The position numbers were made by a program, and so were the translations under genes. From assembly GCA_021802105.1 (NCBI GenBank), contig JAKAAW010000004.1, forward strand, positions 1 to 42,020: a DNA stretch of 42,020 bases, in the 5' to 3' direction. The DNA comes from Nanobdellota archaeon. GTDB taxonomy: Archaea; Nanobdellota; Nanobdellia; Parvarchaeales; Parvarchaeaceae. A model generated the notes under the pieces. That model saw only the letters and a list, made by a program, of their open reading frames with translations, made no database searches and was not told the DNA's origin. Below are positions 1,463 through 27,666 of the stretch, in pieces (position 1 is the stretch's first letter; each line of letters begins with the position of its first letter).

Positions 1463-2269
1463 ATGAGCAATAAGAAAGGCATAAACGCTTTCCTAGAATT
1501 CATAATAGCTATAATCATTATTATCCCAGTCGTTTTCGTAGTTCTTGTGATATTCGTTTACGGTACAGGCAGCATCAAGTCCATAGTCCAATCCCCTCAG
1601 GCATATGTCAGTGATACTGCCGCAGCTCTCACAAGCGGCGAATCGGTTGTTGTGGGCTCCTTGGCCCCTTCTCTCAACAGCAATCAGTTCATGGCGCAGT
1701 TCTATGGCAGCACTTCATGTATCTCTATGCTCGACCAGCTGTCTAGAACAGGGGCGCTCACGGCACCGAGCAATCCAGCTACACTTTCGAATGGTTATTT
1801 CATATGTATGGGATCTTACAAAACCAACGATCTAGTGTCTCCAGGTTGGAGTTACCTGCCTGCGGCATCTTTCAATTCATCTTTTCCGGACTGGTTCTCG
1901 GCTGCGGCATATCTGAACGCAAGATCTAGCATTAACTCATCTGGAATAAACGGTTCCCATGGAACTCTGAGTTTTTTTGAAAACGTTCTGCCGAGCCAAG
2001 CTTTAGCCTCTTCGTGTAAATCTTTCCTTAATGCAACTACGACTATAGGGAAGAGTGAACCTTCTGCTTATATCTCTGCTCTAGACTGCGTGCCTATCCC
2101 TACAAAAAGTGGAACACCCATATTCCTCAGTGTTAACACAGGTTCGTGTACCAATGGATGTATAAATAATCCTGTAGCATTTCTGCACGGGTCGCCAGGG
2201 TCTATATCTCTTCAGAGTTGTACATACACAGGAGGAAGTTCATTAATATGTCAGTTTGATATAAGCTAA
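1463..2269 (+). CDS. Cys-rich surface protein with class III (prepilin-like) signal peptide
   Basis: MSNKKG|INAFLEF followed by a long hydrophobic helix; Ser/Thr/Asn/Cys-rich ectodomain. Confidence 0.75.
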   Translation: MSNKKGINAFLEFIIAIIIIIPVVFVVLVIFVYGTGSIKSIVQSPQAYVSDTAAALTSGESVVVGSLAPSLNSNQFMAQFYGSTSCISMLDQLSRTGALTAPSNPATLSNGYFICMGSYKTNDLVSPGWSYLPAASFNSSFPDWFSAAAYLNARSSINSSGINGSHGTLSFFENVLPSQALASSCKSFLNATTTIGKSEPSAYISALDCVPIPTKSGTPIFLSVNTGSCTNGCINNPVAFLHGSPGSISLQSCTYTGGSSLICQFDIS

Positions 2270-16588: not shown

Positions 16589-17305
16589 TTATGTCTGCAA
16601 ACAGGAAGGTGCTACCACGTTAGTACCTAGGGCGAATATGTACACTAAGAGAGTTGCCGGAACTTGGTTCAGGTGGATTGAAGACGATGCGACTCCGTCT
16701 GCGTTGGTAACGCTCCTAGTGCTGTTTATGTACTGCCCCCCATACGTAAAAACGCTGATGTTATAGGCAGTCAAAGCTGTTGGCGTATGCTTACTGCCGA
16801 AAAATTCTATGTTGTAGTTCAGAGTGTTGCCGCTGATGGAATAAGAATAATTGATGTAGGTTATGTCCGCCTCGAAGCCTATCTGAACTCTGTCACTGTT
16901 GTTATACATTGCATACATAATGTAGTTTCCTGGCGTCATCGGGAGTATCCCAACAATATTCAATTTGGCATTCTGGATGTACGAATACGTGCCGGAGGAT
17001 ACCTTTACAAAGTTTCCGCAGAAAAATGATCCTAGCAGAGTCAACTGTGGTACGGTTAGCGAGAACGAGATCTTAGAACCAAGCCCTTCGTTTGTTACGT
17101 AGTTTGCTTCTTTAACGAGGCTCGTAGCTGTAGTAGAAACCTTTGAAGCTACGGAAGCATTGTAATAGCTAGAATAGTACACGAACACGTAAATCAGGAA
17201 AAAGCCTATTATTAACAGGGCTATCGAAACTATTATTAGATATTCAGTCGTGAACTGGCCTTTTCTACCCGCCCGTGATTTTTCCCGCATACAGTGTATT
17301 ATCAT
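16589..17305 (-). CDS. Class III signal peptide (pilin-like) protein
   Basis: RKG|QFTTEYLIIV with E at +5 and a hydrophobic helix. Confidence 0.85.
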   Translation of the reverse strand: MIIHCMREKSRAGRKGQFTTEYLIIVSIALLIIGFFLIYVFVYYSSYYNASVASKVSTTATSLVKEANYVTNEGLGSKISFSLTVPQLTLLGSFFCGNFVKVSSGTYSYIQNAKLNIVGILPMTPGNYIMYAMYNNSDRVQIGFEADITYINYSYSISGNTLNYNIEFFGSKHTPTALTAYNISVFTYGGQYINSTRSVTNADGVASSSIHLNQVPATLLVYIFALGTNVVAPSCLQT

Positions 17306-17455: not shown

Positions 17456-18379
17456 ATGAGAGTGATAACAAACAAGGAGAGCAAGAAGTGCCCGTCTTGC
17501 GGGGCAGATGCAGTCGTCTACGATAAGACTACCGGGGAATCGATTTGCCAGAAATGCGGATACGTCCTGGAGAGCGACATGATAGACTATGGTAGGGAAT
17601 GGCGATCTTTTGAGGATGAAAGGTCCGAGAGTAAAGGGAGGATGGGGTCTCCTCTCAGCTACGCAAAGTACGATAAAGGGACTAGTACAGTTATAGGAAA
17701 AGCTAGCGAATCGATAAAACTATCAAATGCAAACAGAAGAACGTTTTACAAGCTTAGAAAGTGGCAGCCAAGAATATCTACCGCTTTCGAACGCAATCTT
17801 AAATTTGCCCTCACAGAGCTAAGACATGCCAGCAACAGGCTGCACGTATCGGACGTTATACAGGAAGAGGCAGCGAAAATGTACAGGGAAGCCATAAGCA
17901 GGCGCCTCGTAAGGGGAAGGTCCATGGAGAGTGTCATAGCAGGTGCTCTGTACGCTTCTGCAAGGAAATATAATAGGCCGATAACTTTGGATGAGATCTC
18001 TGACACATTCAGCGTAGAGCGAAAGGAAGTCGGAAAAGCTTACAGGCTTCTATGCAGAGAGCTTGGTATAAAGATACTGCCTACATCACCTAGTGATTAC
18101 ATATACAAGTTTGCTGTCGAACTTAAAGTCTCTAACAAGACAGTTGCTGATGCGGTCAAACTCCTAAAAGAGGCTGAGGAAAAAGGGCTCACTAGTGGTA
18201 AGGGTCCAATGGGAATAGCAGCAGCGGTTCTCTATGTGGCAACGCTGATAAACAAGGAAAAGAAGACTCAGAGAGACGCAGCCAAGGCGGCAGGTATAAC
18301 AGAAGTAACGATAAGAAACAGGTATAAAGAACTTTACCAGGCCCTTAATCTTAGAGATAGGTACAAGATAGAAGAATAA
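17456..18379 (+). CDS. tfb: Transcription initiation factor IIB (probable start MRVITNK)
   Basis: CPSC...CQKC zinc ribbon, EWRSF B-reader, RGRS, GKGPMG, TEVTIRNRYKEL. Confidence 0.97.
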   Translation: MRVITNKESKKCPSCGADAVVYDKTTGESICQKCGYVLESDMIDYGREWRSFEDERSESKGRMGSPLSYAKYDKGTSTVIGKASESIKLSNANRRTFYKLRKWQPRISTAFERNLKFALTELRHASNRLHVSDVIQEEAAKMYREAISRRLVRGRSMESVIAGALYASARKYNRPITLDEISDTFSVERKEVGKAYRLLCRELGIKILPTSPSDYIYKFAVELKVSNKTVADAVKLLKEAEEKGLTSGKGPMGIAAAVLYVATLINKEKKTQRDAAKAAGITEVTIRNRYKELYQALNLRDRYKIEE

Positions 18380-18391
18380 GCGGCTCTTCCT

Positions 18392-19432
18392 ATGGATACT
18401 TTCAAGGAGGGGAGAATATCTTTTTTCGCGAAAGACGAACAGACTAGGGACGCCAAAGTTTTCTTCAACCCCGCAAGACAATTCGACAGGAACCTTAATG
18501 TTTTACTTTTTCGATCACTCGGCATGAAAGATCTCTGTGGAGCAGATCTTTTCTCTGCGAGTGGTATAAGGGGGTTAAGGCTTTCCGCAGAAACAGACGC
18601 ATTCAAAAGCATTCTGCTCAATGATATCCATACATCCAGTATAATAAAAAAGAATGTGAAGGCAAACGAAAAAAGGCTTAACTCTGATATCATCACAGAA
18701 TCCTTCAACGTTACTGAGATTGATAGGTCAAAGGGGCTTTTTGATTACATAGATATAGATCCGTTCGGATCACCGGCGTTCTACGCTGTCCACGCTATGA
18801 ACAATATGAAAGTCGGAGGGATAATGGCTCTTACAGCTACTGATACATCCGCGCTGTACGGAAGCGCCAATAAAGCGTGTGCGATAAGATACAGGGCGGT
18901 CTCAGCGAAAACGTCCTACTATAATGAGATGGGTCTAAGGATACTTCTGAAACGAATAGATGACATAGCAGGTGTGTATAGGAGAGAGATAGAGTCGCTG
19001 TTTTTTGACGTAAGAAAACACTACATTAGGGTTTATGTGCGCATAAAGAGAATAAGACAGTCTGACGACATAAATCATATCTACCAGTGCGGAAGATGCC
19101 CGAACAGGACTCTTATAGAAGGGGGAAAATGTGCCAACTGCGGCTCGGCAATGATCAAGCTTGGGCCCATATGGTCAGGAAAGCTTTTCGACAGAGCACT
19201 TGTGCAGAGGATGTATGAAAAATCAGAGGATGCAGATGAAAAGGACTACCTTGGAATCCTCAGGAGTGAAGGCGATTCGATTACTTACTACACTACTACA
19301 GAGATGGCTTCTTACCTTAAACAGCATGAAAAAAAGAACGGAGCGATCGGTACAAGAACTGTACTGAATAACAAAGGCTTCAGGATAGATTACTGCTTTA
19401 AAGAACTGCTTGAAAATTACAGAAACTTATAA
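18392..19432 (+). CDS. trm1: tRNA (guanine26-N2)-dimethyltransferase
   Basis: VFFNP...DRNL, SASGIRGLR, DIDPFGSP, TATD, zinc finger, GPIWSG. Confidence 0.94.
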   Translation: MDTFKEGRISFFAKDEQTRDAKVFFNPARQFDRNLNVLLFRSLGMKDLCGADLFSASGIRGLRLSAETDAFKSILLNDIHTSSIIKKNVKANEKRLNSDIITESFNVTEIDRSKGLFDYIDIDPFGSPAFYAVHAMNNMKVGGIMALTATDTSALYGSANKACAIRYRAVSAKTSYYNEMGLRILLKRIDDIAGVYRREIESLFFDVRKHYIRVYVRIKRIRQSDDINHIYQCGRCPNRTLIEGGKCANCGSAMIKLGPIWSGKLFDRALVQRMYEKSEDADEKDYLGILRSEGDSITYYTTTEMASYLKQHEKKNGAIGTRTVLNNKGFRIDYCFKELLENYRNL

Positions 19433-19681
19433 CTCCTTTACTTGCTTGAGCAGCGCCTGACCTGGCAGTCCTCTCCTAAATCTAGCAACGACTCTTCCAT
19501 TGTCGCCGTGGACTCTGGTTATAACCCCTCTTATGAAGTTCTTTGAGAACGTAACCTCGACCTTTTTACCTATGTACTTGCCGGCATCCGTTCTCGTGCT
19601 TACACCATCAATCTTTAAAATTGCCTGCAGAACGTTCTGCGTTTTTCTTCCTCTCCTAAAAGATACTATCTTCATTACCAT
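19427..19681 (-). CDS. rpl35ae: 50S ribosomal protein L35Ae
   Basis: SFRRGRKTQ...YIGKKV...GVITRVHGDNGRVVARFRRGLPGQAL. Confidence 0.95.
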   Translation of the reverse strand: MVMKIVSFRRGRKTQNVLQAILKIDGVSTRTDAGKYIGKKVEVTFSKNFIRGVITRVHGDNGRVVARFRRGLPGQALLKQVKEL

Positions 19682-19682
19682 A

Positions 19683-20804
19683 TCATTTTTGTCCTTCGTT
19701 GTATTTGTCGCCCTTTTTCTCCATCTCTTTTGATAGCTCCTTATCTATAGCCGGTTTAGGTATACCTTTCTCTTCTCTAATGCTACTTATTATCTTGAGT
19801 GTCTTGTCGACCACTTCCTTTGTGATCTTGTGTTTTTTGCTATACTCCTCACCACTAACTTCCTTGAGCTCACCGTGATCTATCTTCTTGAACCACGTAA
19901 CGACCTCCTCGACCTTCTCAACGTCTTCTTTTGTCAGGACCTTTTCCTTCTCGACTGCTATTGCCATGAGGTTCTTTGCGACCTCCTTTGGTACAGGAGG
20001 CAGATAACCGTACTCCATAAGCAGAGCCTGTCCTGCGGCAACTACAGAATTATAAAGGTCAAGACTTAACTTGGTGCTCAGCACGCTGTCGGCCAGCATT
20101 ATAAGACCCTCTGCATTCTCGATATTCGCGTCTATGGATTCCTTTGTTGGTATTATGTTGCCAGTTTTGTAAAGCATCTGTATAGGCACGAAGAAACCTG
20201 TGTCATAAACGGCCACTCCGTCCCTAAGGAGAGTGAGTATAACCGGGTTTGGCTTTATAATAGATGCCCAGAACTCTGACAGAGGATATGCCTGAGCGTG
20301 TATTTTATCCGAAAAATCCCTTGCAATCTCTGCCATCTTCGTGAAAAGACGGTCCTTAAGCTGTTCGAGCGTGAATCTCTGTATATCAGTGTCGTCTACT
20401 ATGAACGCGACGTCTATGTCTGAAGTGCTACTTACACCTGACTTTGTCTTTGAACTACCGAATATTATTATGGATTTTATGTATCTCCTAAAAAGGCTGA
20501 GTACTCTAAGGAAATAAGCCCTTACATTATTGGCATCCTTTGCAGGAAGAAGTTTTCCCAAAACATCAAATGACAGACCAGCTAGCTGTCCAGGTGGTTC
20601 TATGTGCTCCTCTTTGCCATCTTCGCCGATATCCATGCCCACAAACGATCCTATATAATCTACTCTCTCATTCATTTCGTCTATCTTTGCTGAAAGAGCA
20701 TCTATAGTAGAGAAGAGCTTATTAAGTGCCCCTTCTATAGGATTTACATTCTCAGTCTGATGCATAGTATAACCTCCACTTTTCAATAAATTTATATTAC
20801 ACAC
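19683..20804 (-). CDS. Pol-beta-type nucleotidyltransferase fused to a HEPN-like helical domain (paralog 1; start may be MHQTE at 20765)
   Basis: IIIFGS...SDIDVAFIVDD; C-terminal LYNSVVAAGQALL...FKKIDHGE; N-terminal coiled coil. Confidence 0.8.
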   Translation of the reverse strand: MCNINLLKSGGYTMHQTENVNPIEGALNKLFSTIDALSAKIDEMNERVDYIGSFVGMDIGEDGKEEHIEPPGQLAGLSFDVLGKLLPAKDANNVRAYFLRVLSLFRRYIKSIIIFGSSKTKSGVSSTSDIDVAFIVDDTDIQRFTLEQLKDRLFTKMAEIARDFSDKIHAQAYPLSEFWASIIKPNPVILTLLRDGVAVYDTGFFVPIQMLYKTGNIIPTKESIDANIENAEGLIMLADSVLSTKLSLDLYNSVVAAGQALLMEYGYLPPVPKEVAKNLMAIAVEKEKVLTKEDVEKVEEVVTWFKKIDHGELKEVSGEEYSKKHKITKEVVDKTLKIISSIREEKGIPKPAIDKELSKEMEKKGDKYNEGQK

Positions 20805-20913
20805 TCTTCTCCTTTATAAGTCTTTATAGCGAATTAAATGTTGTTTTGGCGCCAGAAACTTTCAATGGCTGATATCCATAGTATATATAAATTATTGACA
20901 CCAAAGTAATGAT

Positions 20914-22656
20914 ATGAACCTCCAAGCAGTTGCCAGATACGAAAAAATGATAATGTCCCCTGCTACTTCGGTAAAAGACGTAGACAACTGGATAAATGAG
21001 CTTAAGGCCCGCGCGTCCAGCATAGAGGGTCACTATTCTGGAAAGCTAGAAGAGTTCCGCTTCGCTGGCAAGTTTGAAAGGCCTGCAAGTGGACTTCTTG
21101 GTGGGGAAAAGGGCTCTCTGGTATCCCTTGATATAGAAAAGGGTTACCAGTTCCAAACCGAATACAACATGCTCATGCAGGAGCTAGGCGGATTGGGATA
21201 CACGGAAAAACTGAAAACCGCGGAATCAATTGATCCTGCAGCAATCTCAAATATAATGACAATGGTGTTCGAGAAGAGGAAAGCTTTTGAAGATAGGGCC
21301 ATGACTTTGCTCGGCAGTGTGAACGCAGTGCTTAAATCCATAATATCTATAACATACGAACTGAGGGAGCTTGATAGGAACCTGCAGTTCTATAATCTCT
21401 TAGAATCAACAGACAAGGAGAAGAAAGCTGCGGCAGAACTGGCTCTCAAGAGGATATTCGTGGACCAGGTCGACGCGAGGAAGAGAGGTGCAAGTCTTTC
21501 GGCGCTGTCGAACGGATACACTCAAGGGCAAGGGGGCGCAGGTTTTATAGACTTAGTCGCATCCTTCTACAAAGTTACAAGCTTAAAGGACATAGCGAAC
21601 ATGCAGAGAAATACCGAGTACAAAGACATCCTGAAGAACAGGTATATAGAATATGAGGAATGGAGGAAATTAAGTGGGTCTGATCTCAAACAGAGGAGGT
21701 CTATGCTTCTACAGTATCTGAAGAGTCAGGTATCCTCCTATAAGATGTACTCCGAGTGGGCTGCGGAATCGCTTACTATACTTAAAAGAATAAATCTCAC
21801 TGGTACAAAAAGTGCAGGGGAGTACCTTGGAAAAATAAAACAGCCTGACATCTTCGAAACAGCGAAGTTTAGCGTATCTATAATAAATGGGAAGCCCATC
21901 TACATGAACGATTACGCAGTCGAGAGTGCGAAAGTGTTCGGAAATAGGGGCATACAGATTCCAGTTAAGGTATCCATAAAAAGTCCAGCTTCTGCACCTA
22001 TAACGCAGGGACCCAAGGAGAGCAGCAGGGCATTCACTTACAAGAGAATCACGAAATACGGGCCAAAAGTTGTGGCGGCCATAGAGGCAGAGATTTCATT
22101 CACAGAGAAACAGATGTTCATCAAGGGCGTTCCGCAGGAGAGGCCACAGTACTATGGTACTTTTGATATGAAGCTCGTACCATATTGCTTCACGCTGGAT
22201 GAGTGGTATCTATTCAAAAAAGCACAGGAGGCTAAGATAAACAAGACGGTTTTCTCCGGTCTCGATAGCGTTGCCGTTTCCTCTCTAGGATCAATACAGA
22301 AAGAACTTGACAAATACATGGTGGAAGCGGAGAAGGAGTCAGTAAAAAAGACCGCCAAGAAAAGCGATAGCTACGCTTTCATCGACATATACAGGTCATT
22401 TAAAGATGATATATTCGGGATTAATAAGGCTATGTCACTGTTCACGCCGACCATGGATAGGAAATCAAGTATTTTCAAAGCCGACACTTACGAGATAGCG
22501 GTCAGCCACAGGAAGTTTGGCGCAGCCAGGGTGAAATCCGCTATCTCTGCAGGCATGTTTGTGGCGATGGATGACCTATCACTGATATATGAAGAGTTCA
22601 AGCGCAGAAAGAAACTTCTCACGCCGTTGTCAAAGTTTGACAACCCTCTGTTTTGA
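20914..22656 (+). CDS. Large helical hypothetical protein (580 aa)
   Basis: Long ORF, helical/coiled-coil composition, no recognisable catalytic motif. Confidence 0.8.
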   Translation: MNLQAVARYEKMIMSPATSVKDVDNWINELKARASSIEGHYSGKLEEFRFAGKFERPASGLLGGEKGSLVSLDIEKGYQFQTEYNMLMQELGGLGYTEKLKTAESIDPAAISNIMTMVFEKRKAFEDRAMTLLGSVNAVLKSIISITYELRELDRNLQFYNLLESTDKEKKAAAELALKRIFVDQVDARKRGASLSALSNGYTQGQGGAGFIDLVASFYKVTSLKDIANMQRNTEYKDILKNRYIEYEEWRKLSGSDLKQRRSMLLQYLKSQVSSYKMYSEWAAESLTILKRINLTGTKSAGEYLGKIKQPDIFETAKFSVSIINGKPIYMNDYAVESAKVFGNRGIQIPVKVSIKSPASAPITQGPKESSRAFTYKRITKYGPKVVAAIEAEISFTEKQMFIKGVPQERPQYYGTFDMKLVPYCFTLDEWYLFKKAQEAKINKTVFSGLDSVAVSSLGSIQKELDKYMVEAEKESVKKTAKKSDSYAFIDIYRSFKDDIFGINKAMSLFTPTMDRKSSIFKADTYEIAVSHRKFGAARVKSAISAGMFVAMDDLSLIYEEFKRRKKLLTPLSKFDNPLF

Positions 22657-22660
22657 TAGT

Positions 22661-22837
22661 ATGTTAAACAAAAAGGGAGAGATGCCTATAACTGAGATAG
22701 TCGCCATAGTCATCGCCCTTATCTTGGCTGGGATAGGAGTCGTAATAGCGGCTACCTTCCTTTTGGGAGGAGGAACCAGTATAGCCAACGATATACTTAA
22801 AGCAATATCGTTCAGCTGGTTGTTTGGTAATGGATAA
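22661..22837 (+). CDS. Mini pilin-like protein 1 (58 aa)
   Basis: MLNKKG|EMPITEIVAIVIALILAGIGVVIAATFLLGG. Confidence 0.85.
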   Translation: MLNKKGEMPITEIVAIVIALILAGIGVVIAATFLLGGGTSIANDILKAISFSWLFGNG

Positions 22838-23003
22838 GAAAGGGTCTGTGCAGGGAACGGTTCTTCTGTATGTAGTACTAATGATAGTCCTTATTATAAT
22901 AGTGATAATAGTACTGGAGCTGTTCACGCCATACAAATTCTCCAATCTGATAGATTCTTTTATATCCGCGGCCAGCCACAGCGGTGGAGGACAGTATGCA
23001 TAA
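22830..23003 (+). CDS. Mini pilin-like protein 2 (57 aa, not in ORF track)
   Basis: MDKKG|SVQGTVLLYVVLMIVLIIIVIIVLELF; 8-nt overlap with the previous gene. Confidence 0.85.
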   Translation: MDKKGSVQGTVLLYVVLMIVLIIIVIIVLELFTPYKFSNLIDSFISAASHSGGGQYA

Positions 23004-23142
23004 GAAAGGGGTCACAGACTACGTGCTCCTCATGATAATAATCATAGTAATCTCCCTTGTCATAGTGATATTCTATCTGGTAATCTTCTCCCCCGGAGCC
23101 CTGGGCAAGTTAATACCTCCTCTCCCAAATCCTTTCGGGTGA
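22996..23142 (+). CDS. Mini pilin-like protein 3 (48 aa, not in ORF track)
   Basis: MHKKG|VTDYVLLMIIIIVISLVIVIFYLVIFSPGALGKLIPPLPNPFG; 8-nt overlap. Confidence 0.85.
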   Translation: MHKKGVTDYVLLMIIIIVISLVIVIFYLVIFSPGALGKLIPPLPNPFG

Positions 23143-23148
23143 CATGAT

Positions 23149-23325
23149 ATGAACGGCAAAGGCATAACGGAGACGACTATATATTATATAATAGCGCTAG
23201 TGCTTGCCATAATCTTGATAATAATCTATATACTACTCGCCGGGCCCAACGTAATCTCCAATGCAATATCTAGCGTGCTCTCCGGCTTCAAATCTTCGAT
23301 AACTTCAGGTCTAGGCAGTATATAA
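23149..23325 (+). CDS. Mini pilin-like protein 4 (58 aa, not in ORF track)
   Basis: MNGKG|ITETTIYIIIALVLAIILIIIYILLAGP. Confidence 0.85.
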   Translation: MNGKGITETTIYYIIALVLAIILIIIYILLAGPNVISNAISSVLSGFKSSITSGLGSI

Positions 23326-23373
23326 GACTTTCCCATCAAAAACGTTTAAAAGTATGGGACGCTAGGTATTCTG

Positions 23374-23649
23374 ATGGAAAATTGGTACAAGCATTCCGAG
23401 GGAAAGGCAGTCAAATCCTTGAAATTCGGAGAGTTCGAAGTAAAGTACGTGAAGAAGGAGAAGAGTGAAGACTTCCAGCCGCGCAACGACAAGGCTCCCA
23501 TAAACATAAGCAAAGAACAGCTTAAAGTGACTAAAAACGGAGCTAAGCTTAAAGTCAGAAAAGCAAAGAAACTGGCTATAATCGAAGCTCTAAGGAACGA
23601 TGAGCTGGACAGGGTAGACGAGATAGTCAAGACCCTAGAAGCACAGTAA
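23374..23649 (+). CDS. Lys-rich hypothetical protein (91 aa)
   Basis: Codon usage looks typical; T-rich tract follows. Confidence 0.6.
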   Translation: MENWYKHSEGKAVKSLKFGEFEVKYVKKEKSEDFQPRNDKAPINISKEQLKVTKNGAKLKVRKAKKLAIIEALRNDELDRVDEIVKTLEAQ

Positions 23650-23700
23650 GAACCGATTTTTACTTTTTTTATGTTTCTTCAGGCGCGGATGTATTATCTC

Positions 23701-24075
23701 TTAATCTTTTAGCACGGCTGCTATCTCATCTGCCGATCTTTTTGTGTACATCTTAATGAGACCATAGTTTGCATTGGGATCCGTCATCACAGTTAATATA
23801 GCGTTTTCACCGGCTTTTATAGCGACTACCCGTATGTCCTTCGATTCAGCGAATATCGTGTCAAATATGTTTTTTGACCCAAGATATTTTAGAGCCTCTT
23901 CAGCTGCACCAACCATAGAAGCCATCATGGCGGCGAAGTTATTCGGGTCTATGTCCTGTGGTATCCTGTGTACTATAGGCAGCCCGTCCGCAGATATGAC
24001 GGCTGATGCTTTTATCCCGCCGACCTCTCCGAGTTTCTCTAAGATCATGCTCATTGATTCGGATTTTGTGGCCAT
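23701..24075 (-). CDS. Roadblock/LC7 (MglB-like) protein
   Basis: GIKASAVISADGLPI...FAAMMASMVGAAE...AILTVM...NYGLI. Confidence 0.92.
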   Translation of the reverse strand: MATKSESMSMILEKLGEVGGIKASAVISADGLPIVHRIPQDIDPNNFAAMMASMVGAAEEALKYLGSKNIFDTIFAESKDIRVVAIKAGENAILTVMTDPNANYGLIKMYTKRSADEIAAVLKD

Positions 24076-24112
24076 ATAACTAATTATAACTCATACTTAA
24101 TTTAAGCATTTA

Positions 24113-25321
24113 CTAAGTCAGCTCCTCAAAAAGCGCAGAGAGGGCTGCTTCTATCCCCTCTTTCTTAAGTTTTGCCGGTTTGTTAGGGTCTATATTCTCC
24201 ACGTTCTCAGCAACAGTCTGTATCAGTGGTGCTTCTTTCTCAAGGTGTAGTTTATCTCTTACCTCATCAATGCCGAGCGCACCCGGCATATTAGCCTTAT
24301 TTGCTACAACGACTATAGGCAGACCGTATGTCTCGGTCTTCCTAAGCATCTCTATCGCTCTTGGAAACTGCGTTGGTTTTGTAGAATCTATTATGAGTAT
24401 AACTCCTACTGCTTCACCGCCCAGCAGCTTAAGGAGTGGATCGAACCTTTCCTGTCCAGGAGTGCCGAAAAGATCCGCCTTATAACCCTTAAAATCAACG
24501 TTACCATGATCAAGGGCTATAGTACCGCCTAATCTGTCAACACTTATTGCGTCCTTAGAAGCTGAGTGAATGAAAGAGGTCTTGCCGGCATCCGTTGGAC
24601 CGGTGACCAGTATCTTGGGGAAATATATTTTTATTCCCCCTGGTTTTACTGATTTGAAAAGCACAGAGGTGAATTTTTTGCCTATCACCCAGTCACACTT
24701 TATGACAGCGAAGTACTGCCCGAATATGACGCGTTTCTCTATCCCTTTGATGTCGACTCTAGCGTTTACTTTTGATATAAGTTTATCCACGTTGTCTTCG
24801 CCGTAATTCCAATCAGTGAAAAGGAAAACCGCAGAACTGTCAGAGTTCTTTATCTTGTTGTTGATTAGGTCTACTATAGAAAGTGCAAAATCAAAGTCGA
24901 AGAAATCGGCTATGAGCGAGAGTGAATCTATGACTATTAAATCGTAATCCTTTTCAAGTTCATCTGTAATAGCTTTTTTTATCTCTTCTTTGTCATATGG
25001 GTTTTTTATCATCCTGCCTATGCTGCCATCGGACGAATTTATACCCGTTATACCGCTGTAGGAATCTATCATGGATAGGTTATCGTTGGTAATAAAGTCA
25101 TACTCCTTCATATCAGCCAGATACGCTTTCGGAGACGCACGGTTTAGGTACAAGAGCACCTTATTGTTGTGGATGAGGTTGTTTTGTATCAGCTGGTAGC
25201 CGAAAACTTCGTTTCCGACAGCAGGAGAGGCAAAGAAGAGGACTCCTTTCCTAGCAGGTATACCGCTAAGCTCTTCGTCAAGCCTACCTATCCCGAATAT
25301 TGGGTCTTTTCCTTTAGCCAT
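24113..25321 (-). CDS. Degenerate KaiC/RAD55-like domain fused to an MglA-like small GTPase
   Basis: N-half GIGRLDEELSGIP, broken Walker A ASPAVGNE, IVIDSLS; C-half GPTDAGKT, TIALDHG, FGTPGQERF, NKAN. Confidence 0.88.
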   Translation of the reverse strand: MAKGKDPIFGIGRLDEELSGIPARKGVLFFASPAVGNEVFGYQLIQNNLIHNNKVLLYLNRASPKAYLADMKEYDFITNDNLSMIDSYSGITGINSSDGSIGRMIKNPYDKEEIKKAITDELEKDYDLIVIDSLSLIADFFDFDFALSIVDLINNKIKNSDSSAVFLFTDWNYGEDNVDKLISKVNARVDIKGIEKRVIFGQYFAVIKCDWVIGKKFTSVLFKSVKPGGIKIYFPKILVTGPTDAGKTSFIHSASKDAISVDRLGGTIALDHGNVDFKGYKADLFGTPGQERFDPLLKLLGGEAVGVILIIDSTKPTQFPRAIEMLRKTETYGLPIVVVANKANMPGALGIDEVRDKLHLEKEAPLIQTVAENVENIDPNKPAKLKKEGIEAALSALFEELT

Positions 25322-25363
25322 ACAGAGAGTTGTCAGACATGGAATATAACCCTTTCAGGCAGT

Positions 25364-26023
25364 TCAGATGTCTTTCCAGTCAAGCACCTCTTTAGCGTTG
25401 CCGGAGACCTTAAAGGTTCTCTTCCCCCCTTCCATCTTAAGTGATATAACCGCGTCCATAAGTGATTTTATAGTTTCGTTTACGTCCGGGGCGTGCATCT
25501 CATTGTCTATTAAAAAGACGCTTGATATCCCAGCCATTTTGGCGCGCCCACACACGAACTGAAGAAATCGGTACATCGTTGTCGGATTGTTGTACAGAAG
25601 AAGAACTGAAAGGGAATCTATAATGTTAAGCACCGGGATGCCTTCTTTAGACATGTCCGCGTTCATAGCGGACAGAGCCACCGATAATCCTGTCAGGTCT
25701 AAAGGCCCGTTAAGCATCTTTGTGTAATTATTATCTCCCGCCTGAGGGGTTATACTCCTGCTGTACACATCTATAAGCTTGAGAGATGTGCCTAGATACT
25801 GCGCTATGTTAAGGTGTTTTGACGAGAATTCTGATAGGACGTCGCTTACTGGTTTCCCGGTGGTAACATACACGACCGCTACTTTGCTCTGCAGTGCAGA
25901 CGTTACGGCTCGGTAGATAAAATCCTCCTTGTTGCTCTCTTTATTCCCGCTTAGAAGATATGTTTTGCGCAGATCTATCCCTCCGACAGAATCGTCGAAA
26001 GAACTTATTCCTGTCTTTATCAT
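25364..26023 (-). CDS. KaiC/RAD55-like protein with degenerate Walker A
   Basis: IKTGISSFD...LLSGNKESNKE...VVYVTT...IIDSLSVLLLYN...LMDAVI. Confidence 0.85.
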   Translation of the reverse strand: MIKTGISSFDDSVGGIDLRKTYLLSGNKESNKEDFIYRAVTSALQSKVAVVYVTTGKPVSDVLSEFSSKHLNIAQYLGTSLKLIDVYSRSITPQAGDNNYTKMLNGPLDLTGLSVALSAMNADMSKEGIPVLNIIDSLSVLLLYNNPTTMYRFLQFVCGRAKMAGISSVFLIDNEMHAPDVNETIKSLMDAVISLKMEGGKRTFKVSGNAKEVLDWKDI

Positions 26024-26637
26024 ACCTTAAGCAATTTAACGCGCTTAGATTTTGTGCCTATGGATGTGCCATCAACAGTTATAGAAACGTCCACTGTAAG
26101 CTCATCATCTTTCTGATCGAACGTTATCTCCTCCTTAGCCGATTTCTCAACAGATACGTTTATGAAGGGGAAAAGGTAGTTTATGAGACTCCTGAAAAGG
26201 GCCTTCTGGTCCCCTCTTTTAATTATCATAGAGACTGTATCATTAAGATCCTGCGTATTGACTATCTTGAAATAGTCAGTCTCTATTATGAGGTCCGTTA
26301 TTTTCTCGTGTGGAAGCTCAAGCAGGTCGTTTATGGTGTCCCTTATATTTTCGTCAGCACCAAATCGCTTGGATACGCTTCTTGGTTTGCCTCCTGCGAT
26401 AAAATCAATCGTGAGTTCCGTAGAGTTGACTAGATAGAGCCTTAAGAGAATCTTGTATATCCCGTCCGCGTACAACCTAAGCGGGTGCGTTACCTTAAGC
26501 TTCACAGCCCCTTCAAGGTATTCCAGGTTAATATCTAGCCTTTTCGCAGGTATTATACTGTTAAGAGTTGATGCCGACCCTGCACCATCAAAGAATTTCC
26601 TGAGTTCATTTATAGCCTCAAAAGCGTTCATCTCCAT
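26020..26637 (-). CDS. Hypothetical protein, first gene of the KaiC/GTPase/Roadblock operon
   Basis: ATGA overlap with the next gene. Confidence 0.7.
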   Translation of the reverse strand: MEMNAFEAINELRKFFDGAGSASTLNSIIPAKRLDINLEYLEGAVKLKVTHPLRLYADGIYKILLRLYLVNSTELTIDFIAGGKPRSVSKRFGADENIRDTINDLLELPHEKITDLIIETDYFKIVNTQDLNDTVSMIIKRGDQKALFRSLINYLFPFINVSVEKSAKEEITFDQKDDELTVDVSITVDGTSIGTKSKRVKLLKV

Positions 26638-26673
26638 ATCAGATTATGTTCTTCAATAAATATAAAATAGATT

Positions 26674-27252
26674 TTATGCACAAACACCTGTTGAAGAGGA
26701 CGCTGGAGCATATAGAGCGGTCTCGTTCGGATAGAGCGCGAAAGCAGAATGCGAAGTAGATATTATTACAGCCACGTATCCTGCGCATCCCGCACTATCA
26801 TTGAACCATCCAGAGATGCTGTTCCCTCCCAATTCGAACACGTTGGCTGTATTAACGCCGTTTGAATTGACCCAGTTTACATACTGCTGGTTTGTCATCA
26901 CCATAAATCTAGTGTTGGTTGTGGCATTGTACTGCATATGCACCCTGAAAGTATCCGGTATTGAAAGGAATATATATGAGCCAGCCGGCTCTGATATCTT
27001 CTGGTTCCATATGTACAATAAAGGACTGTTATTGATGAATCTAAAGCTGAGAGGTATAATGTTGCCTTCAGATATTGCTATAGAAGAATTTTGTGTCAGG
27101 CAGAAACCGGACCCATTTTTGAACACAAGAGTAGTATTCTCACTGCAGCTGTTTATTAGCAAGAGGTGGTTGGAGAAAGCGTAAAAGAACCCCACTGCTA
27201 TGAGCACTATAAAAAGAAGACTTAAAATTTGTCCAGCATCAGAAGATTTCAT
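26674..27252 (-). CDS. Membrane-anchored secreted protein (possible atypical class III signal, DAG|QIL)
   Basis: N-terminal TM helix, Cys pairs, N-x-S/T sequons. Confidence 0.7.
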   Translation of the reverse strand: MKSSDAGQILSLLFIVLIAVGFFYAFSNHLLLINSCSENTTLVFKNGSGFCLTQNSSIAISEGNIIPLSFRFINNSPLLYIWNQKISEPAGSYIFLSIPDTFRVHMQYNATTNTRFMVMTNQQYVNWVNSNGVNTANVFELGGNSISGWFNDSAGCAGYVAVIISTSHSAFALYPNETALYAPASSSTGVCA

Positions 27253-27291
27253 AGTATGATTAGCACATTCGTCGATTTAACATCTGCCAAA

Positions 27292-27666
27292 TCAGGATCT
27301 ATAGCTGCCGCAATTAGGTATCGTTCCAGTTATAGACCAGGCAACCGTTGTCCCGTTGTTTAGGACGCAGCTGCTCGTTCCGCCAGGGACAGTCCCACAG
27401 GACCATGTCGTTCCACTTATAGTATCATTTGGATATGTGCACCACTGCGCAGGGTTGTTTACGGCAGAGGATTCAGAGCAAGCGGTCTGGCAGTTTGCCG
27501 CGAAAGCCTGTTCGGCCTGGGTGTTAGGGTTCGTGGCGCCTCCTATACCTTTGAATCCACCGAGAACGAAGGTTATAAAAAGAACCAGAATGAGAAGGCC
27601 TATAGCTATGAGGATTATTGTATTTATCGGTAACCCTTGTCCTTTTGAGCTTAAAACCATTATCAT
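27292..27666 (-). CDS. Type IV pilin-like protein with Cys-rich head
   Basis: SSKG|QGLPINTIILIAIGLLILVLFITFVLGG; six Cys in a small head domain. Confidence 0.85.
   Translation of the reverse strand: MIMVLSSKGQGLPINTIILIAIGLLILVLFITFVLGGFKGIGGATNPNTQAEQAFAANCQTACSESSAVNNPAQWCTYPNDTISGTTWSCGTVPGGTSSCVLNNGTTVAWSITGTIPNCGSYRS

Follow-up and report, generated by a model that had tools for sequence, protein, structure and literature searches.

An array of four very short conserved genes in a Parvarchaeales archaeon encodes candidate head-less type IV pilin-like subunits

What do four minute open reading frames (ORFs), set end to end behind a larger gene in the genome of a Nanobdellota archaeon, encode? 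They occupy positions 22,661 to 23,325 of a 42,020-nucleotide (nt) stretch of DNA (GenBank assembly GCA_021802105.1, contig JAKAAW010000004.1, forward strand; Nanobdellia, Parvarchaeales, Parvarchaeaceae). We refer to this whole stretch as the window; it is contig C1 of a 669 kb genome that is 89% complete. Public homologs of the protein encoded by the larger gene, which is 580 amino acids (aa) long, are named Candidatus Parvarchaeota, Parvarchaeum or Acidifodinimicrobium, and the host is therefore placed, by sequence, in the ARMAN-4/5 group of DPANN archaea. An earlier note on this DNA had described the four ORFs as a tandem array of head-less mini-pilins. Our comparisons across related genomes indicate that they are real genes, conserved as a unit under purifying selection, and we consider it fairly probable that their products, here called minis, are paralogous, head-less, Epd/Flp-like type IV pilin-like subunits. 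The five genes concerned are:

20914-22656, plus strand: gene of the 580-aa protein, 4 nt upstream of ORF1
22661-22837, plus strand: ORF1, 58 aa; leader MLNKKG, hydrophobic helix, tail ending SFSWLFGNG
22830-23003, plus strand: ORF2, 57 aa; leader MDKKG, helix, conserved FTPYK motif, short tail
22996-23142, plus strand: ORF3, 48 aa; leader MHKKG, helix ending FYL, Pro-rich tail
23149-23325, plus strand: ORF4, 58 aa; leader MNGKG, helix, Gly/Ser-rich tail

A common plan runs through all four products: a basic leader of 5-6 residues ending in KKG or GKG, a hydrophobic stretch of 20-25 residues and a tail of 15-25 residues. Directly after the presumed cut lies a hydrophobic helix of about 20 residues, both in the four translations and in all orthologs. 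ORF1 starts 4 nt past the stop of the 580-aa gene, 8-nt overlaps join ORF1 to ORF2 and ORF2 to ORF3, and a gap of 6 nt separates ORF3 from ORF4. The lengths, leaders and junctions that the earlier note had given agree with the sequence, its coordinates and its translations, and so does its description of the products as lacking a globular head. Read from the first start codon, the frames of ORF2, ORF3 and ORF4 are 59, 52 and 58 aa long, so that an ORF track with a 60-aa floor would miss these three. By the same rule the ORF1 frame is 82 aa, beginning at 22589; this longer form is not conserved, as the 11 orthologs listed have a stop codon 1-11 codons upstream of their ATG.

Are frames of this size genes? 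A search with the 580-aa protein fetched 20 loci of the genus, 19 of them usable and the other (L006) stopping at a contig end. All four ORFs are present in the same order in 19 of the 19 loci with downstream DNA, each of which has exactly four small hydrophobic ORFs, and the orthologous arrays for which the earlier note had proposed a search of relatives are thus found. Across three genera the four frames are open and in order in 27/27 loci examined, and the ORF1 profile matches 39 of the 40 genomes of the order and all three of its genera, the sole miss being a contig that ends there. Median ratios of nonsynonymous to synonymous substitution (dN/dS, Nei-Gojobori) are 0.20, 0.19, 0.22 and 0.22 for ORF1 to ORF4, calculated from 85, 57, 80 and 56 usable pairs out of 171 each, the rest being saturated at synonymous sites. 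Over all 171 pairs per family, the median proportion of differing nonsynonymous sites (pN) is 0.29-0.36, against 0.72-0.77 for synonymous sites (pS). The dN/dS check that the earlier note had called for therefore gives about 0.2, purifying selection on all four families.

The junctions are tight in nearly all of the 19 loci, neighbouring genes either overlapping by 8 or 4 nt or standing 1-7 nt apart. Shine-Dalgarno-like motifs precede ORF1, ORF2, ORF3 and ORF4 in 7, 0, 7 and 4 of the 19 loci, compared with 9% at random positions. Given these infrequent motifs and the tight junctions, translation of the array is probably coupled. Contigs from three metatranscriptome runs of the same study were compared with positions 20900-23700 and none could be placed there at 85% likeness; the runs were nearly empty of the genome's sampled words and are uninformative either way. 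The alternative that the ORFs are chance open frames in an AT-rich spacer rich in hydrophobic codons, and are untranslated, could draw on their length (each below 60 aa) and on the weak Shine-Dalgarno-like motifs. It has to contend with four frames open in order at every one of the 27 loci in three genera, with the low dN/dS and the gap between pS and pN, and with public annotations in which ORF1 orthologs are already called as genes under the name 'hypothetical protein', for example in ARMAN-5 (EFD92929.1). This conservation pattern effectively refutes the chance-frame explanation, to which we attach hardly any probability.

If the ORFs are genes, what kind of protein do they encode? The leaders point to prepilin-type processing. 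According to the accessible text of PMC3387779, the key positions for the archaeal class III signal peptidase (SPase III) are -2, which is positively charged, -1 and +1. We read these columns from one alignment per family, spanning 27 genomes, of which 19 belong to the genus and the other 8 come from three genera. Position -1 is G or A in 96/96 leader-bearing copies among the 27 genomes and four families, including 27/27 each for ORF2 and ORF3. Position -2 is K or R in 87/96, made up of 27/27 for ORF1, 21/27 for ORF2, 26/27 for ORF3 and 13/15 for ORF4, and the +1 residue of most ORF1 orthologs is Gln. The shortest leader has 3 residues (MKG) and the longest 12. The earlier note had taken K/R-G followed by a hydrophobic helix as a class III signal, and this signal proves to be conserved; judged by their aligned sequences, the four ORFs carry a class III (prepilin-type) leader as PMC3387779 describes it.

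Profile comparisons suggest that the minis are related to one another. HHalign between families gives 97.1% for ORF2/ORF3, 95.9% for ORF3/ORF4 and 94.0% for ORF1/ORF4, and the hidden Markov model (HMM) of each mini family finds the other minis at 20-33 bits in a set of 3,577 ORFs, made up of those of the genome and of 12 distant loci; with the mini profiles, every unrelated membrane protein of the genome stays below 20 bits. When the ORFs were reversed, the best scores were 8.9-15.5 bits; in the forward direction the broad profile had 28 matches of 20 bits or more. Contig C2 encodes a fifth mini, 53 aa long, which is present in 37 of the 40 genomes of the order, with weak matches at ORF3 positions. 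The most economical reading of these similarities is that the minis arose as an old tandem expansion of one small gene.

ORF1 also has relatives well beyond the array. Its leader and helix align over 29 columns with a family of Cys-rich, pilin-like proteins of 116-124 aa found in the order (HHalign 94%, E 1.3e-7); the window itself encodes one member of this family, at positions 27292-27666. When 1.84 billion representative proteins were scanned in full with the ORF1 HMM, 20 of them matched at E<=1e-3. These include proteins of 50-60 aa from outside the order, one of them from Candidatus Jingweiarchaeum, of the sister order, which share one plan: after a K/R-G leader come an acidic +1 residue, a helix, a turn of sequence G-K-G and a tail that closes with [SR]-F-G. 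Once these relatives were included, the resulting broad ORF1 profile matched 266 of 301 sampled genomes of the class, in 154 of 177 genera, and of the matches listed from beyond the order, most are open frames some 50-75 aa long that the profile covers over almost their whole length. Neighbours of the minis in the ESM Atlas are confined to nameless 'hypothetical protein' clusters, at 0.87-0.90.

With what genes does the array keep company? In two other genera, g18 and g19, and in G048, a divergent genome of the host's own genus, it comes directly after three genes whose proteins start with a hydrophobic helix: one of 302 aa, a Cys-rich one of about 495 aa, and one of 143-147 aa with a class III leader and Glu at +5. 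The last of these genes ends 14-59 nt before ORF1 in the 7 genomes concerned. It lies 2.6-2.8 kb from the array on the same contig, facing it, in 28 further genomes, and on a different contig in 3 genomes, including this one; two of the 40 genomes were unscored for this distance. Array and pilin-like cluster are thus adjacent or at most 2.8 kb apart in 35/40 genomes of the order. An AlphaFold2 (AF2) model of the 143-aa protein, with a mean predicted local distance difference test score (pLDDT) of 84.9, places a 33-residue N-terminal helix on an immunoglobulin (Ig)-like sandwich, which is the general build of archaeal pilins. Fold searches with the model of the 145-aa pilin-like protein returned only generic Ig and fibronectin type III (FN3) matches with Z <=8.0, and no family could be named from them. 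In the present genome the cluster is found on contig C2:

17659-21189, minus strand: pilin-like cluster, which also holds the fifth mini
17659-22164, minus strand: wider cluster (locus L064), encoding proteins of 145 aa (MRRG then QATLE), 173 aa, 53 aa (the fifth mini), 302 aa, 491 aa and 143 aa

The 491-aa protein is Cys-rich and starts MAETAGE, and the 143-aa protein has the leader MNRKG. Several proteins of the C2 cluster have N-terminal helices with an acidic leader or none, and a MinD/ParA-like ATPase gene lies nearby.

On the other side of the array, 18/18 other loci of the genus (L007-L024) have a 190-aa GINS51-like gene next. In this genome the GINS51-like gene is instead beside the C2 cluster, and the array is followed by a 91-aa ORF without a family (23374-23649); a rearrangement breakpoint is therefore located just after ORF4. 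Taken together, the gene orders indicate that the flanks of the array have been rearranged repeatedly while the four genes were kept together.

Genes for a class III signal peptidase and for two sets of ATPase and platform are present in the genome:

C11:15307-15645, strand not stated: Peptidase_A24 (PF01478), 49.4 bits, in a 280-aa ORF with Peptidase_A24 and Arc_PepC_II
contig C8, strand not stated: T2SSE ATPase of 506 aa, then two T2SSF platform genes (Pfam)
contig C11, strand not stated: T2SSE ATPase of 749 aa, then a 703-aa platform-like gene (Pfam)

A connection between minis and such machinery emerges from 12 distant loci, picked from the best or multiple matches of the broad profile and not at random. 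All 12 contain an ORF1-like mini. In 7 of them it forms part of a run of ORFs with class III leaders, immediately preceded by the genes for a T2SSE ATPase and a ~720-aa protein, and one of these 7 ends with a Peptidase_A24 gene; the ~720-aa protein is a full-length homolog of the 703-aa platform-like protein of the present genome (BLASTP 2e-110). At 4 more loci the mini is found among class III ORFs beside the platform-like protein or a large 'MAE.GG' protein, and at the remaining one it stands alone. The ORF1 family is thus associated with an ATPase and a platform in 7/12 distant loci, and the array of this genome is not. Minis of 31-43 aa come directly after the platform gene in 4 of the 9 distant loci that are readable there (L131, L132, L136 and L138), where they have a KKG-type leader. 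Such a mini may be a conserved small partner of the platform; none follows the platform gene on C11 of this genome.

These observations suggest a model for what the minis do. Each would be made with a class III (prepilin-type) leader of 5-6 residues and inserted with that leader in the cytoplasm, the class III signal peptidase encoded on C11 would cut after the conserved Gly, and the product would be a subunit of 43-53 residues, consisting of a single hydrophobic helix with a short tail. The subunits would then be handled by one of the two motors (ATPase plus platform) of the genome, like Epd and Flp pilins, and would serve a thin surface filament either as its building blocks or as subunits that prime it. 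We infer cleavage, export, polymerisation and the choice of motor from the genes alone. Each paralog is a single copy across the order, and the four therefore probably have distinct roles in one assembly. A complex prediction of the four mature forms, with ORF4 as partner, scored 0.01 against a mark of 0.32 and, run without controls, is evidence neither for nor against binding. The pseudopilus tip complex and the membrane-penetrating structure that the earlier note had entertained are speculation. We also considered, and dropped, a holin-, toxin- or bacteriocin-like function, given that four distinct paralogs are conserved across the order beside pilin-like genes.

How do the minis compare with filament systems already described? 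The idea of a head-less pilin is not new in kind, being already established for Epd pili: the Epd major pilin, arCOG06620, is without a globular domain, like bacterial Flp/Tad pilins, the Tad pilus being considered a descendant of the Epd pilus of archaea (PMC13705601 section 11). The accessible text of Makarova and colleagues describes stand-alone archaeal major pilins of about 70 aa with several paralogs (PMC4858521). Like the Epd pilin of Methanococcus maripaludis (EpdE/MMP1685, 'system 1'), the minis have a short K/R-G class III leader, a single helix and no head. Their genes lie apart from the motor and form several paralogs, as is often the case for Epd pilins according to PMC13705601 section 11 and the accessible text of PMC4858521. 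The layout of one ATPase and two T2SSF genes on C8 is that of 'system 1' in PMC13705601 section 11, and ARMAN-4 is filed, like ARMAN-5, under system 1 in the readable part of the supplement to that paper. Most ORF1 orthologs have Gln at +1, as EppA substrates do in the accessible text of PMC2910488. The arCOGs given for ARMAN-4/5 in the readable part of the PMC13705601 supplement do not include arCOG06620; EFD92929.1, the ARMAN-5 ortholog of ORF1, was not found in the readable part of the supplementary tables, an inconclusive result, and a text search of the literature found no mention of the ARMAN-5 locus tag. The minis differ from Epd pilins in having no PF04021 match, in the position of the ORF1 Glu (+6, not the +5 of the QXSXE motif), in size, their 43-53 aa mature forms being shorter than the ~70-aa preproteins of the Epd family, and in being fixed as four paralogs of a single operon.

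Like the minis, the Flp pilins of bacterial Tad systems are small when mature, about 45-60 aa, and consist of a helix with a short tail. In both cases a dedicated peptidase for prepilins is present, as is a motor that includes two platform proteins. It is common for several flp genes to stand in tandem. In contrast to these systems, the genome has no PF04964 match anywhere, it belongs to an archaeon, and its minis have K/R-G leaders. Flp pilins carry a Glu-Tyr motif at +5/+6 that is absent as such from the minis, although ORF3 has Asp or Glu and Tyr at +2 to +4. Four-member sets of minor pilins, FimU-PilVWX and GspHIJK, prime bacterial type IV pili and type II secretion pseudopili. As in those sets, four different pilin-like proteins, each single copy, are encoded together here, and in other genera large proteins with N-terminal helices are encoded beside the array. 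The globular heads of those minor pilins make the tip complex, however, and the minis, being head-less, could therefore not form one in the same way. The type IV filament loci of DPANN archaea are described as scattered, with ATPase and platform adjacent and pilins elsewhere (PMC13705601 sections 6-7, 20). The present genome, with its motors and array apart, fits that description, whereas the 7 distant loci ordered as ATPase, platform and class III run with minis depart from it. The present analysis adds to the description of the array the class-wide family of ORF1 and the position of that family in such ordered loci.

Several observations weigh against a pilin-like identity. An hmmscan of the four proteins against Pfam and NCBIfam gave no family match, its sub-threshold noise comprising DUF350 at 22.8 bits (ORF2) and ComGG, PsbH and similar models at E>0.1. 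No mini matches PF04021 (Class_IIIsignal, DUF361, with the motif QXSXEXXXL) at E<=0.01, a six-frame search of the genome with that model yielding only the 238-aa protein at 16589-17305, at 16.5 bits and below the cut-off. Six-frame searches with PF04964 (Flp_Fap) and PF07790 (Pilin_N) gave no match at E<=1. The minis thus appear to lie outside these three families, though alike in kind to known head-less pilins. The window contains no ATPase, platform or peptidase gene, the motors being on C8 and C11 and the array on C1, and the pilin-like cluster of this genome is on another contig than the array. HHalign gives only 16.5% for ORF1/ORF2, over the leader alone, and HHalign and HMM scores among helix-rich mini-proteins are inflated by composition, the reversed control being clean nonetheless. 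Moreover, only ORF1 can be assigned to the class-wide family: as far as profiles see, ORF2 to ORF4 are specific to the order, a narrow ORF3 profile at E<=1e-4 matching 10/10 Parvarchaeales genomes against 6/91 others. The scarcity of Shine-Dalgarno-like motifs, given above, counts on the same side.

The leader itself has exceptions that belong with these points. The -2 residue of ORF2 is N, S, Q, H or L in 6/27 genomes, and ORF4 orthologs are without any leader, and without a usable upstream start, in 12/27; the ORF2 and ORF4 proteins of these species would not be substrates of the peptidase as currently understood. The leaderless ORF4 orthologs begin ME..W[FY]Y at the residue aligned with +2 of the presumed mature form, and the N-terminus of a leaderless ORF4 would be almost the same as that of a processed one, which suggests that the leader is dispensable for the mature protein. 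As evidence that the peptidase removes the leader, these orthologs count only indirectly. This natural loss of the leader offers a ready-made test of prepilin leader function. As a baseline, a custom pattern scan of the genome for [KR][GA] and a helix, by which we located class III-like ORFs, covered 120 ORFs that have an N-terminal helix and found [KR][GA] close to it in 30. By this count the motif is not rare in itself, though many of the 30 are likely class III proteins, including the larger pilin-like ones.

Two other accounts of the minis must be set against the same data. In one, the minis belong with a type IV filament system without being subunits of the filament; cleaved or uncleaved, they would remain in the membrane and serve the assembly platform in a small accessory or priming capacity, for example as helices packing on the large platform protein. 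The 31-43 aa minis that follow platform genes would suit this role, a membrane-resident helix would tolerate both the leaderless ORF4 proteins and the ORF2 proteins without K/R at -2, and four single-copy paralogs suggest a fixed stoichiometry and not one bulk subunit. An invariant G or A at -1 in leaders that otherwise vary is hard to explain without a processing site, however, ORF1 aligns with the leader and helix of a pilin-like family that does have heads, and head-less filament pilins of such size are known (PMC13705601 section 11). We regard this account as rather unlikely while giving it some weight.

The other account makes the minis single-pass membrane proteins unrelated to pili, their basic N-termini setting topology by the positive-inside rule, that partner or anchor the 580-aa protein. 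The gene for that protein adjoins the array on the same strand in 19/19 loci of the genus, and here the two are probably co-transcribed; the failure of every pilin family model to match the minis, and the 30 of 120 baseline for [KR][GA] before a helix, would fit this account as well. Comparison across genomes argues otherwise. Homologs of the 580-aa protein occur in 39/41 relatives, across the class, and in 14 more distant genomes other genes come next to them, never small membrane ORFs. In g18, g19 and G048 the array is not beside the 580-aa gene, and in the 7 genomes of the order mentioned above it follows pilin-like genes. ORF1 relatives reside in ATPase/platform loci at 7 of the 12 distant sites, and the AF2 model of the 580-aa protein (pLDDT 70.7), a long coiled-coil hairpin (residues 112-296) with beta domains, has no recognisable membrane-binding feature. 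The comparative data contradict this account, which we hold to be improbable. The 14 distant genomes and the context in g18, g19 and G048 likewise led us to reject a functional operon of the 580-aa gene and the array. The link between the two that the earlier note had implied is not supported: by gene order, the 580-aa gene is a mere neighbour and not a functional partner, and the adjacency is a feature of one genus. The 580-aa protein itself has no Pfam or NCBIfam match, and a fold search with its model found nothing convincing in the PDB, only generic coiled-coil matches (Z <=10.5), below chance level for helical models.

If the minis are indeed head-less pilin-like subunits, they may bear on structures seen at the cell surface. 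Cells of ARMAN/Parvarchaeales are joined to Thermoplasmatales hosts by pili-like structures, according to the accessible texts of PMC5864196 and PMC10134863, and a census of archaeal type IV filaments finds DPANN systems scattered and notes that its models may miss pilins (PMC13705601 sections 7, 20). The four genes and the class-wide ORF1-like family are concrete candidates for subunits of the ARMAN-type structures. A bolder proposal, which strikes us as doubtful and which we put forward with little confidence, is that the five minis form an obligate hetero-oligomeric head-less filament, or a membrane-spanning helical conduit, by which Parvarchaeales would fasten themselves to their wall-less Thermoplasmatales hosts or bridge into them, with ORF4 a natural leaderless type IV pilin and, more generally, the ~55-aa proteins of ORF1 type the major pilin so far missing from the DPANN type IV filament. 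The array also marks very short genes that annotation misses or leaves as 'hypothetical'.

Around the array, the window encodes archaeal housekeeping functions, among them an aIF5B-like GTPase, TFIIB, Trm1, KaiC-like ATPases and a Roadblock protein. Three further proteins with class III-type leaders are encoded in it, the first two of them from the pattern scan:

1463-2269, plus strand: 268-aa protein with class III-type leader, MSNKKG then INAF
16589-17305, minus strand: 238-aa protein with class III-type leader, RKG then QFTTEY
27292-27666, minus strand: 124-aa class III pilin-like protein, leader then QGLPIN, in an apparent operon at 23701-27666

The apparent minus-strand operon at 23701-27666 includes, together with this pilin-like gene, GTPase and Roadblock genes. 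It encodes proteins of 192 aa and 205 aa without a family, a 219-aa KaiC-like protein (DUF7504), a Roadblock/LC7 protein and a 402-aa protein in which a KaiC-like part is fused to an Arf/Ras-like small GTPase. The pairing of GTPase and Roadblock genes beside a pilin gene in this operon resembles polarity modules of the MglA/MglB type.

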